Origin: Desulfobacteraceae bacterium
GTDB lineage: Bacteria; Desulfobacterota; Desulfobacteria; Desulfobacterales; Desulfosarcinaceae
DNA: 64,000 nucleotides
Reading direction: 5' to 3'
NCBI GenBank assembly: GCA_050124755.1
Contig: JASFER010000001.1
Coordinates: 2,391 to 66,390 of the forward strand
Part shown: piece by piece, positions 21,162-24,584 of the stretch
Position numbering within the stretch: position 1 is the stretch's first letter
Layout: each line of letters starts with the position of its first letter
Made by a program: the position numbers and the translations under genes
Notes under the pieces: model-generated
Databases searched by the model: none
Seen by the model: the letters and a program-made list of their open reading frames with translations, nothing else
What the model was told of the DNA's origin: nothing

Positions 21162-21226
21162 TCCGTCATATTAGACACCTATGATCGTTTGTCCGGTCTT
21201 ATACCAGTATAAGAATGAGGTACACT

Positions 21227-21718
21227 ATGCCCATATATGAATTCTATTGCGACGATTGCAATACCATTTTCAATTTCTTTTCCAAAACCATCAATACGAC
21301 CAAACGCCCCAAGTGCCCTCAATGCCGCACCAAAACTTTAAGCCGCCAAATGTCGGCTTTTGCCATCGCCGGAAAGACCAAGGAAGGTGGTGACATGGAT
21401 GATTTGCCCATTGACGAGAGCAAAATGGAACAGGCCATGCAAATGCTGGCCGGCGAAGCCGAAAGCATCAATGAAGATGATCCCAGACAGGCCGCCAACC
21501 TTATGCGCAAGTTGACCCAAATGACCGGATTGGAGTTGGGCTCCGGAATGGAGGAGGCCTTGCAGCGCATGGAGGGTGGTGAGGACCCGGAACAGATCGA
21601 GGCTGAGATGGGGGAGATACTTGAAAATGAAGACCCTTTTCAGCTGGCGTCCAAAAAGGGAGGCAGAGTGTCAAAGCGCCCGGCGCCTAAAAAAGACGAT
21701 ACCCTGTATGATTTATAA
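21227..21718 (+). CDS. FmdB-family zinc-ribbon protein with an acidic C-terminal tail
   Basis: MPIYEFYCDDCNTIF...CPQC is the FmdB CxxC...CxxC signature. The start follows GAGGT. Confidence 0.7.
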   Translation: MPIYEFYCDDCNTIFNFFSKTINTTKRPKCPQCRTKTLSRQMSAFAIAGKTKEGGDMDDLPIDESKMEQAMQMLAGEAESINEDDPRQAANLMRKLTQMTGLELGSGMEEALQRMEGGEDPEQIEAEMGEILENEDPFQLASKKGGRVSKRPAPKKDDTLYDL

Positions 21719-21733
21719 AAAAGGAGAATAACC

Positions 21734-22258
21734 ATGGACCCATCGATTCGATCCAAAATCGAGATCCGGCAGGGGGATATTACCCGGCTTTGCGTAGATG
21801 CCATCGTCAATGCCGCCAACACCAGTCTTTTGGGCGGTGGCGGCGTAGACGGCGCCATCCATCGGGCGGCCGGACCTGAGCTTTTAGCCGAGTGCCGCAC
21901 CATCGGCGGATGTCCCACTGGAGAGGCACGCATTACCAAAGGGTATGGGCTGCCGGCCAAATACGTGATTCACACGGTAGGGCCGGTCTATAGCGGCCGC
22001 CCTCAGGATCCGCAGCTGCTCCAATCGTGTTATATGAACAGCCTTCAGTTGGCCTTGGACCGCAACGTTCAGAGTATTGCCTTTCCGGCCATCAGTTGCG
22101 GTGTTTATGGATACCCCATCGCCGATGCCGCCAAAATTGCCTTGAGAACGGCTATCGCTTTTTTAAGTGAGAACCCGGCGGTGACACGCATCGTTTTTGT
22201 CCTGTTTTCCAAATCGGATCAGGCGGTTTATGAGGAGGTTTTTGAATCTTTGCACTAA
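21734..22258 (+). CDS. Macro-domain protein (O-acetyl-ADP-ribose deacetylase, YmdB-like)
   Basis: Motifs IVNAANTSLLGGGGVDGAIHRAAG and AFPAISCGVYGYP are present. Confidence 0.85.
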   Translation: MDPSIRSKIEIRQGDITRLCVDAIVNAANTSLLGGGGVDGAIHRAAGPELLAECRTIGGCPTGEARITKGYGLPAKYVIHTVGPVYSGRPQDPQLLQSCYMNSLQLALDRNVQSIAFPAISCGVYGYPIADAAKIALRTAIAFLSENPAVTRIVFVLFSKSDQAVYEEVFESLH

Positions 22259-22492
22259 AAATGACTTGCTGCTTTGGAGAGGCCCTTGACATTGCGTGAG
22301 CTTTCAGATAACCGCATCATCTTGTCGTTCAGTTTTTTTGAACTGAATTGACAATCGCGCTGCGGTGGTTAGCTTGGAAACTCAATGAGCCTAAATTGTT
22401 TCTATTCCGGCATTGGGACTCAGCGCCATTATGCATCGAAAGCTCGTCGGCTGGTGATGACATGCAGCTCAATTTTTTTTAAGGAGGATATC

Positions 22493-22816
22493 ATGCTCGA
22501 AGTAACACCTGCGGCCACTGAACAAATCGCAGCCTATTTTAGTGACAAAGAGGTTCGCCCCGTTCGAATCTTTTTGAACGAAGGCGGATGAGGCGGCCCC
22601 GGCCTGGCCATGGCTCTGGATGAGCCCAATGACGCAGACGAACAATTTGAAGTGGACGGTTATCAGTACATCGTCAACAAAGAGTTCCTTGAACGTGCGA
22701 AGCCCATTAAAGTCGATTTCCACATGTATGGGTTTAAACTCGACTGCGGTATCGATTTCAACACCGGTGGTGGTTGCTCCTGCAGTTCCGCCCAAAAAAG
22801 CCAATGCGGCTGCTGA
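22493..22816 (+). CDS. HesB/IscA-like selenoprotein, 107 aa, with Sec encoded by the in-frame TGA at 22589..22591
   Basis: Track ORFs 22385..22591 and 22610..22816 are in the same frame and separated only by the TGA. The joined sequence ...VRIFLNEGG-U-GGPGLAMALDEP... places the TGA where IscA/HesB proteins carry the GGC(S)G cysteine. AGGAGG lies 6 nt before the ATG at 22493, and a strong terminator follows the gene. Confidence 0.7.
22589..22630 (+). promoter_or_regulatory. UGA recoding site plus a candidate bacterial SECIS hairpin
   Basis: A stem GGCUC(22612..22616)/GAGCC(22622..22626) with apical loop UGGAU can be extended with a bulge (CAUGGCUC...GAGCC-C-AAUG). It starts about 20 nt after the UGA. 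Confidence 0.45.
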
Positions 22817-22840
22817 TTGTAAAAAAGATTTAGATTCTGT

Positions 22841-22881
22841 GAGGCGGTATCCGGCACGGCCCGATACCGCCTCTTTCTCTT
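22841..22881 (+). terminator. Rho-independent terminator of the selenoprotein gene
   Basis: A perfect 11-bp stem (GAGGCGGTATC / GATACCGCCTC) with an 11-nt loop is followed by TTTCTCTT. Confidence 0.8.
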
Positions 22882-22938
22882 TACGGCTGTGAAATAATCG
22901 CTTTTCCGCTCCCCCACATGACATAAGGAGGTATCTCC

Positions 22939-23655
22939 ATGGCATTGGTGGATTTTCAGGTGGAGGGCCATGTCGCCCTGGTAAGCCTGAACGACGGCGA
23001 AAACCGGTTCAATCCGACCTTTTTGGATGCGCTCTTAAGCGCCATGGATGAAATTGAGCACGGCACCCAAGCGACCACCATGGTGGTTCGCAGCTCCCAT
23101 GAAAAAATATTTTGCAACGGGATCGATCTTGAGTGGCTCCTCCAGATCATGCAGCAGCAAGATATGGCAACCGCCAAACGCTTTTTTTACCAACTCAATG
23201 TATTGCTCAAACGCATGGTAACCTACCCGTTGGTCACCGTTGCCGCCATCACCGGGCACGCTTTTGCCGGCGGGGCGATTTTCAGCAGCACATTCGATTT
23301 TCGCTTTATGCGTTCGGACCGGGGTTACTTTTGTCTACCCGAAATCGATCTGGGCATGCCGTTTCTGCCGGGCATGAATGCCATCTTGCGCAGCGCCATT
23401 CCGGAGACCGTGTTGCGTGAAATGCAGTTGACCGGCGTACGGCTCACCGCCCAGATGTGTCAAGGCCACCAGATTGTCAAGGGGGCGTTTCATATAGATG
23501 AGTTGATGGATGAAGCGCTTCAGTTTGCCCGGCAGGTCAATAAAAAGCGTCCCATCATCAAAGAGACCAAAGCCAGATTGAACAAAACCATCGTGCACGC
23601 CATTGACGTGGAGGATCCGCCCTATATCGAATCCGGACAATACCATTTAGGATAA
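22939..23655 (+). CDS. Enoyl-CoA hydratase/isomerase (crotonase) family protein
   Basis: A crotonase-fold pattern is present (FCNGIDL, ITGHAFAGGAIF). Confidence 0.7.
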   Translation: MALVDFQVEGHVALVSLNDGENRFNPTFLDALLSAMDEIEHGTQATTMVVRSSHEKIFCNGIDLEWLLQIMQQQDMATAKRFFYQLNVLLKRMVTYPLVTVAAITGHAFAGGAIFSSTFDFRFMRSDRGYFCLPEIDLGMPFLPGMNAILRSAIPETVLREMQLTGVRLTAQMCQGHQIVKGAFHIDELMDEALQFARQVNKKRPIIKETKARLNKTIVHAIDVEDPPYIESGQYHLG

Positions 23656-23684
23656 CGTTCGTTTGCACCGTAAAGGAGGTTGGG

Positions 23685-24584
23685 ATGAAGGTTGTCGTCA
23701 CCGGAGGATCCGGCTTTGTCGGGACCCATTTAAGCCGCCAATTGTTGGACGCCGGACACGAGGTGCTTTCCTTTGGAACGCGTGCCATCTATCAGCGCAT
23801 CGATCATCCCGCATTTACCTATCAATCGGCAGACACCACCCGGCCGGGTGATTGGCAACAGGGCATCGCCGATGCGGATGTGATCTACAATCTGGCCGGT
23901 GGGACCATTTTTCAGCGCTGGACCAAACGATACAAGCAACAAATTTACAATAGCCGTATTTTAACCACGCGCCATCTGGTGGCGGCTCTGACGCAGGCCT
24001 CCCGGAAGGTCCTTGTCAGCACGTCGGCTGTTGGGTATTATGGCGACTGCGGCGATACCGAGTTGACGGAAGCGTCCCCCCTGGGGGACGATTTTCTGGC
24101 CGAAGTTTCACGCGATTGGGAGGCCGAGGCCATGGGGGCGGAAGCCAAAGGTGCACGTGTGGCCATTGCCCGTTTTGGTGTCGTGTTGGGAACCGGCGGC
24201 GGGGCTTTGGCGAAAATGATTCCCGCGTTCCGCTTCTTTGTGGGCGGGCCGTTGGGGACCGGCCGACAGTGGTTCCCGTGGATTCATATGCATGATCTCG
24301 TAGGAGCCCTTGAATTCTTAGCATTCACCGAAAGCTTAAGCGGGCCTTTTAACCTAACGGCCCCCAACCCCGTGCGCAACAAAGAGATGGCTGCAATCCT
24401 CGGTAAAGTGCTGGGGCGTCCTGCAGTGTTGGCTGCACCAGCATTTATGCTCAAATTGGCGATGGGCGAATTTTCCGGCGTATTGCTGGGGAGTCAGCGG
24501 GCATTGCCGTCCCAACTGCTTAAGGCCGGTTATGACTTCGCTTTTCCAAACATTGAAGCTGCTTTGGAGAACTTGTTCCATTGA
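23685..24584 (+). CDS. YfcH-like NAD-dependent epimerase family protein (SDR fold with a DUF1731-type C-terminus)
   Basis: The N-terminus is VTGGSGFVG. The C-terminus ...LKAGYDFAFPNIEAALENL is typical of the family. Confidence 0.7.
   Translation: MKVVVTGGSGFVGTHLSRQLLDAGHEVLSFGTRAIYQRIDHPAFTYQSADTTRPGDWQQGIADADVIYNLAGGTIFQRWTKRYKQQIYNSRILTTRHLVAALTQASRKVLVSTSAVGYYGDCGDTELTEASPLGDDFLAEVSRDWEAEAMGAEAKGARVAIARFGVVLGTGGGALAKMIPAFRFFVGGPLGTGRQWFPWIHMHDLVGALEFLAFTESLSGPFNLTAPNPVRNKEMAAILGKVLGRPAVLAAPAFMLKLAMGEFSGVLLGSQRALPSQLLKAGYDFAFPNIEAALENLFH

Follow-up and report, generated by a model that had tools for sequence, protein, structure and literature searches.

Gene layout at the locus

The window analyzed here is a stretch of 64,000 nucleotides of contig JASFER010000001.1 from a Desulfobacteraceae bacterium; coordinates are those of the window unless another contig or a locus is named. 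Its forward strand carries what is very probably, judging from sequence comparison, one monocistronic gene encoding a HesB/IscA-family selenoprotein of 107 residues (NCBIfam NF038090), in which an in-frame TGA stands for selenocysteine (Sec, U). A previous examination of the letters alone, termed below the sequence-only reading, had joined two open reading frames (ORFs), 22385..22591 and 22610..22816, across this TGA. Both are in the ORF list and lie in one frame, and translation from ATG 22493 with the TGA read through gives the 107-residue protein that had been quoted. A single in-frame TGA is found within 22493–22816, which makes U residue 33, in the context NEGG-U-GGPG. The genuine stop is also a TGA (22814–22816), with a back-up TAA two codons further on. 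From the translation, the tryptic peptide across residue 33 would be IFLNEGG-U-GGPGLAMALDEPNDADEQFEVDGYQYIVNK.

The flanking signals had been read correctly. The strong ribosome-binding site is present as AGGAGG, and the gene has its own terminator with an 11-bp stem, GAGGCGGTATC/GATACCGCCTC at 22841–22851/22863–22873, followed by the U-rich tail UUUCUCUUU. The terminator region (22817–22890) folds with −27.3 kcal/mol (z = −3.53), and none of 200 shuffled sequences was equally stable. A simple pattern scanner did not report this terminator, probably because of an internal mismatch; the folding shows that it is real. The features of the gene are collected in Table 1, together with those of a cassette found elsewhere in the same genome, which is designated G000 (484 contigs, 92.8% complete) and is described further below.

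Table 1 Coordinates of the HesB/IscA-family gene in the window and of the selC*-selB*-cysS* cassette of G000
Feature	Location	Strand	Description
Shine-Dalgarno sequence AGGAGG	22482..22487	+	5 nt before ATG 22493; read from the sequence
Coding sequence (CDS), predicted 107-residue HesB/IscA-family protein	22493..22816	+	Translation with the TGA read through
In-frame TGA, codon 33, predicted Sec	22589..22591	+	Aligned with the Cys that is the first cluster ligand in A-type carriers
Hairpin of the selenocysteine insertion sequence (SECIS) type	22612..22626	+	Folding and comparison; codons 40–45 (M-A-L-D-E-P)
Cys/Gly/Ser-rich C-terminal tail GGGCSCSSAQKSQCGC	22766..22813	+	Last residues, C-G-C, opposite the C-x-C ligands of 1nwb
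Intrinsic terminator	22841..22882	+	11-bp stem, 3 inner pairs, then UUUCUCUUU
selC* tRNA-Cys(UCA)	G000:C191:9628-9715 (L001 1501-1592)		ARAGORN drawing
selB*	L011 1489-3411, contig C191		640 aa; TIGR00475 298.7 bits
cysS*	L011 3411-4085, off the contig end		TIGR00435 278.3 bits over 225 aa before the contig end

Orthologues with TGA or Cys at position 33

Relatives of the gene were collected by a six-frame search with NF038090 in 61 related genomes, representing 25 families of the order. A member was found in 60 of the 61, in most cases with exactly one in-frame TGA. In the same kind of search of G000, the window gene scored 103.7 bits with 1 TGA inside. The extracted copies that were compared comprise 30 that contain the TGA (Sec form) and 17 that are free of it (Cys form), and all of them start at the homologous ATG. 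The TGA falls in column 33 in 30/30 Sec-form orthologues, and the sequence-only reading had suggested checking for a Cys opposite U in Cys-containing homologues: it is there in all 17 TGA-free copies. Sec and Cys forms frequently occur within one genome. The motif U33-G-G-P36 matches the UxGP motif listed for HesB-like selenoproteins (PMC13188914). The sequence-only reading would have been abandoned had the two halves proved to be separate genes in other organisms; the homologues are single continuous genes.

The neighborhood is conserved as well. The region compared covers 21215–24584 of the window and the loci L023–L052, and the order Zn-ribbon / Macro-domain / HesB(U) / enoyl-CoA hydratase-like / epimerase (DUF1731) is kept in many families of the order. 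No isc, suf or nif context was seen in this region; the neighbors are Macro-domain, enoyl-CoA hydratase, epimerase and nitroreductase genes.

The searches also returned other family members. G000 has a second TGA-containing NF038090 copy (G000:C311:5968-6249, L022; 87.7 bits) with the same hairpin after the TGA; it has just 95 residues, ending in …NSANRNSQCR, and is devoid of the multi-Cys tail. Lower-scoring NF038090-like matches with one TGA were found in G006, G008, G011 and G022 (75–81 bits) and in G012, G023, G026, G028, G032 and G036 (37–46 bits); these point to further HesB-like paralogues with Sec that have diverged more strongly.

The hairpin downstream of the UGA

Bacterial SECIS elements are stem-loops that follow closely on the UGA and have a guanosine in their small apical loop (PMC1088965). 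The hairpin GGCUC-UGGAU-GAGCC that had been noticed in the window 20 nt past the UGA is indeed present: the 5-bp stem GGCUC/GAGCC starts 20 nt after the UGA, and the apical loop UGGAU 25 nt after it. It resembles the bacterial SECIS of the E. coli fdhF type in lying within the CDS just past the UGA and in its small G-containing loop. It differs from that type by a very short stem of 5–6 bp and by the lack of an Rfam match: a scan of the whole window at the gathering thresholds returned no match, hence neither a catalogued SECIS nor any other RNA family.

The hairpin is conserved in Sec-form relatives and absent from Cys forms. Of the 30 Sec forms, 28 make all five pairs and the remaining two make four of the five; none of the 17 Cys forms makes the full set. 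The core pairs are 96–100% paired, the sole changes being from G-C to G-U. As the helix is simply conserved, with no covariation, support was sought in synonymous constraint and in the contrast with the Cys forms, which belong to the same genome set. Synonymous sites are also the better test since the hairpin lies in the codons for the conserved peptide M-A-L-D-E-P. In Sec forms, Ala41 is GCT in 29/30, Leu42 is CTG in 30/30 and Glu44 is GAG in 29/29 (0.21, 0.0 and 0.0 bits, respectively), whereas all other conserved four- or sixfold degenerate codons of the gene vary with 1.0–2.1 bits. The same codons are variable in Cys forms: Ala41 is GCC in 11, GCG in 3, GCT in 2 and GCA in 1, and Glu44 is GAA in 5 and GAG in 3. 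Codons 41–44 are an island of synonymous constraint in the Sec forms only. The significance of the hairpin comes only from this comparison with relatives.

Protein family, fold and ligand positions

Profile scores were computed with Cys in place of U. The protein matches NF038090 ('IscA_HesB_Se') over model positions 1–101 of 101 with 110.7 bits (E = 3.4e-32), above the curated whole-protein cut-off of 85 bits; the name of this model refers to the selenoprotein form. The match to PF01521 is barely over the gathering score (27.2 versus 26.3 bits), and the IscA/SufA/ErpA equivalog models all remained below their cut-offs: TIGR02011 with 27.3 versus 150.6 bits, TIGR01997 with 30.5 versus 136.2, and NF010147 with 17.1 versus 117.

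An AlphaFold model built from 32 sequences has a mean predicted local distance difference test score (pLDDT) of 68, with values below 50 for residues 90–107. In a Foldseek search with this model, the nine best PDB matches all have the IscA/SufA/HesB fold, with a probability of 1.00 and template-modelling (TM) scores of 0.56–0.66; they include the [2Fe-2S]-bound IscA 1x0g. The modelled product has the fold of A-type Fe-S carriers, in line with the scaffold layout that the sequence-only reading had recognized.

A sequence search of the PDB places U33 opposite the first ligand Cys (GGC-SG) of the Aquifex IscA 1nwb, of HI1723 (2apn) and of SufA. The claim that the stop falls at the first conserved Cys of the family holds, as the TGA column aligns with the GGC-SG Cys of 1nwb and 2apn. 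At the other end of the protein, C105-G-C107 aligns with the CGC of 1nwb. By alignment, the predicted Sec33 occupies the site of the first cluster-ligand Cys, and C105-G-C107 the site of the C-x-C ligands of IscA/SufA; the ends of orthologue tails differ (CGC, CSC, CCS or CG), and the exact ligand pair is not fixed.

The Cys-rich tail had been considered an unusual feature of the window protein. This view was not borne out, for almost every Sec or Cys form carries a tail rich in Cys, Gly and Ser, of which …CSCSSAQKSQCGC is a genus-level variant. A possible second Sec in the tail of some members (P0034 has W where relatives have Cys) was rejected, the codon being a genuine TGG.

Selenocysteine machinery and the selC*-selB*-cysS* cassette

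The sequence-only reading called for selA, selB, selC and selD elsewhere in the genome. Three of them were found in G000, while selC was found only as a selC* tRNA-Cys(UCA). The selA match has 618.6 bits. The canonical selB encodes a full-length protein of 645 aa (374 bits), in which the two winged-helix domains, wing_2 and wing_3, are both present. The selD gene (G000:C162:3802-4725, L018; 351.5 bits) likewise contains an in-frame TGA, within the motif TCG-U-AAKI, and thus encodes a selenoprotein itself.

The selC* tRNA is the sole tRNA of G000 with a UCA anticodon and the sole match over the tRNA-Sec cut-off; the weaker covariance-model matches to tRNA-Sec in this genome are ordinary Trp, Tyr, Leu, Ser and Arg tRNAs. 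Both Rfam (52.9 bits) and ARAGORN label it as tRNA-Sec. This assignment was rejected in favor of selC* tRNA-Cys on account of U73, A1:U72 and the 8/4 shape: the acceptor stem has 8 bp, and the T stem has 4 bp with an unpaired A. The selB* gene follows 37 nt downstream of selC* and overlaps cysS* by one base, the last of its stop codon being the first of cysS*. SelB*, a second and divergent SelB, matches the SelB model at positions 1–434 only. It keeps a C-terminal wing_3 domain (PF09107, 29.4 bits versus a cut-off of 23.2), and wing_2 was not detected.

A selC*/selB*/cysS* cassette has been described for Desulfobacterales (Mukai et al. 2017, PMC5389517) and reviewed (PMC7609411). The gene order and tRNA features on contig C191 are those of the Desulfococcus biacutus description. 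G000 differs from the published system in that the cassette lies away from the HesB locus, and a link to the UGA of HesB is hypothetical; its cysS* is cut by the contig end. The same cassette is present in G007 (C4:2142070-2143332 onward), a near-closed genome of the same genus as G000, and was not found in four genomes that represent other genera within the family.

G007 also has a canonical selC (73.4 bits, G73, 8/5). So do G012 and G026, which belong to another genus of the same family and have one canonical SelB and no selB*.

Decoding of the UGA codon

On the basis of bacterial Sec decoding, SelB carrying Sec-tRNA(Sec) would bind the hairpin 22612–22626 when the ribosome is at UGA codon 33. 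Selenocysteine would be inserted in place of termination, and translation would run on to the true stop at 22814. The product may then bind and hand over an Fe-S cluster, or a related metal or chalcogen species, at a dimer interface, with the selenolate of Sec33 and two tail cysteines as presumed cluster ligands. Fe-S carrier chemistry is the most likely function by analogy, considering the fold and the ligand positions only.

A number of observations weigh against this scheme. The 27 aligned Sec forms used for the covariation test show 0 compensatory double changes, so that covariation gives no independent support to the hairpin; the hairpin region alone is no more stable than shuffled sequences (z = 0.09); and the conserved peptide M-A-L-D-E-P forces part of the hairpin conservation. 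As regards the proposed function, the gene has no isc/suf/nif context and fails the IscA/SufA/ErpA equivalogs, and a 75Se-verified archaeal relative is without known function (PMC11097638). As regards the machinery, a canonical tRNA-Sec (G73) was not found in G000, either with the covariance model or by BLAST with the selC of G007. BLAST of the 3-kb neighborhood of that selC against G000 was negative as well, and the peptidase encoded next to selC in G007 was likewise not found. An assembly gap is the likely cause, because the assembly is fragmented and incomplete and the gene flanking selC is missing too. In addition, intact selA, selB and selD would make no sense without a tRNA-Sec.

The missing selC is also one of the points in favor of a different decoding, in which codon 33 is read as Cys, always or under selenium scarcity, by selC*, CysRS* and SelB* with the same or a nearby hairpin. 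The complete cassette is present in G000 and in G007 of the same genus, the wing_3 domain kept by SelB* may permit binding to an mRNA hairpin, and in E. coli a tRNA of this kind inserted Cys at the Sec UGA of a selD gene (Mukai et al. 2017, PMC5389517). This decoding, a published proposal for the selC* system, is nevertheless rather unlikely. The orthologues of G012 and G026 (L048, L052) have the identical TGA and hairpin in genomes with only the canonical SelB and selC. As the same signal occurs where the canonical system is the only one, the hairpin is best regarded as a canonical SelB-dependent SECIS, and Sec as the best reading of the codon. The intact selA, canonical selB and selD that G000 keeps would be useless without tRNA-Sec. 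Recoding is unnecessary to obtain a Cys version, since Cys-encoding paralogues already exist in related genomes. Moreover, SelB* has no detectable wing_2 and a SelB match of limited extent, and the natural function of selC* is "uncharted" according to its own authors. A combined scheme, in which codon 33 and other SECIS-bearing UGAs of the genus would be dual-coded through the same hairpin, as Sec with selenium and as Cys without it, is conceivable, with the odds clearly against it. If it were true, HesB would be a small and well-defined natural substrate for probing the function of the selC* system.

Far less probable is genuine termination at the TGA, with the locus being a pseudogene, the result of a sequencing or assembly error, or the source of a 32-residue peptide and of a 68-residue protein starting at ATG 22610. 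Standard ORF calling does yield exactly two fragments, many public 'hypothetical protein' entries of 66–70 aa begin at MALDEP, and the hairpin by itself is statistically unexceptional. Against this stand the identical TGA codon in 30 orthologues from about 25 families, with the flanking protein and the synteny conserved, and the Cys forms, which are continuous single proteins. Furthermore, no Shine-Dalgarno sequence is visible before ATG 22610 (GGCGGCCCCGGCCTGGCC), whereas AGGAGG precedes ATG 22493, and in the model neither half alone would make the full HesB fold. The shared TGA column, the conservation of its flanks and the conserved synteny therefore rule out a pseudogene or an assembly error, and a gene with its own Shine-Dalgarno sequence, its own terminator and conserved synteny is not a decaying one. 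Hardly credible at all is a variant genetic code that assigns TGA to Trp or Gly. The public entries P0002–P0009 do show W at position 33, and one of them was confirmed to need TGA = W for its translation. However, the gene itself stops at TGA followed by TAA, many orthologues also end with TGA, the long neighboring genes are open under table 11, the homologues have Cys at this position and neither Trp nor Gly, and dedicated Sec machinery is present. Insertion of Sec at codon 33 is the interpretation that is retained.

Relation to known proteins and annotation

HesB-like selenoproteins numbered 11 members by 2006, including proteins from Desulfovibrio, Geobacter, Syntrophus and Syntrophobacter (Zhang et al. 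2006, PMC1794560), which agrees with the statement in the sequence-only reading that they had been reported from Deltaproteobacteria. They are listed with the UxGP motif in a 2026 review (PMC13188914). The window protein shares with this bacterial family (NF038090) a single Sec in U-x-G-P, Cys in the homologues and a hairpin downstream, as well as the occurrence in anaerobic sulfate-reducing Deltaproteobacteria with Sec/Cys paralogue pairs. There is no difference of substance, the window gene being an orthologue in an unannotated and fragmented genome. It is a member of an already known selenoprotein family, correctly recognized in such a genome.

An archaeal HesB-like protein (Methanococcus maripaludis MMJJ_08070) was established as a selenoprotein by mutagenesis and 75Se labelling (PMC11097638). 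Like the window protein, this archaeal HesB-like protein (TIGR01911) is small and related to IscA, has one Sec and is without established function. The window protein reaches only 19 bits with the archaeal-type model TIGR01911 (HesB_rel_seleno), missing its cut-off of 66.35, and therefore belongs to a different subfamily. The position of the hairpin differs too: archaeal SECIS elements are in untranslated regions (3'-UTR; PMC7609411), whereas that of the window is inside the CDS.

With IscA, SufA and ErpA (PF01521; 1x0g, 1r94, 2d2a, 1nwb), the window protein has in common the predicted fold and the GG-C/U-xG and C-x-C positions. It differs from them by the predicted Sec in place of the first ligand Cys, and by a longer, multi-Cys, Gly/Ser-rich tail; its gene is monocistronic, is outside an isc/suf/nif operon, and scores far below the equivalog cut-offs. 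The role of a selenolate as first ligand in an A-type fold is unexplained, in a family that is near-universal in the order and has a conserved neighborhood.

Members of the family are mis-annotated in public records, either as full-length entries with Trp at position 33 or as C-terminal 'hypothetical protein' pieces of 66–70 aa in metagenome-assembled genomes of Desulfobacteraceae (P0002–P0009, P0011, P0051 and P0064). Gene callers that treat TGA as a stop split the gene in two, and others read TGA as Trp. For the gene itself, the value of the present analysis is mainly a correct annotation, as present records under-count the selenoproteome of Desulfobacterales. The short conserved unit of UGA and hairpin would also be a convenient test substrate for the selC*-selB*-cysS* system.

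Other open reading frames

When the window was scanned coarsely for further pairs of ORFs linked by a TGA, the sole long candidate was 12202–13923/13942–15360, which consists of two ordinary adjacent genes. On the reverse strand, an ORF of 158 aa (22469–22945) spans the HesB gene in full as well as the terminator; in all likelihood this is a shadow ORF opposite the genuine forward-strand gene, and its annotation is unwarranted.

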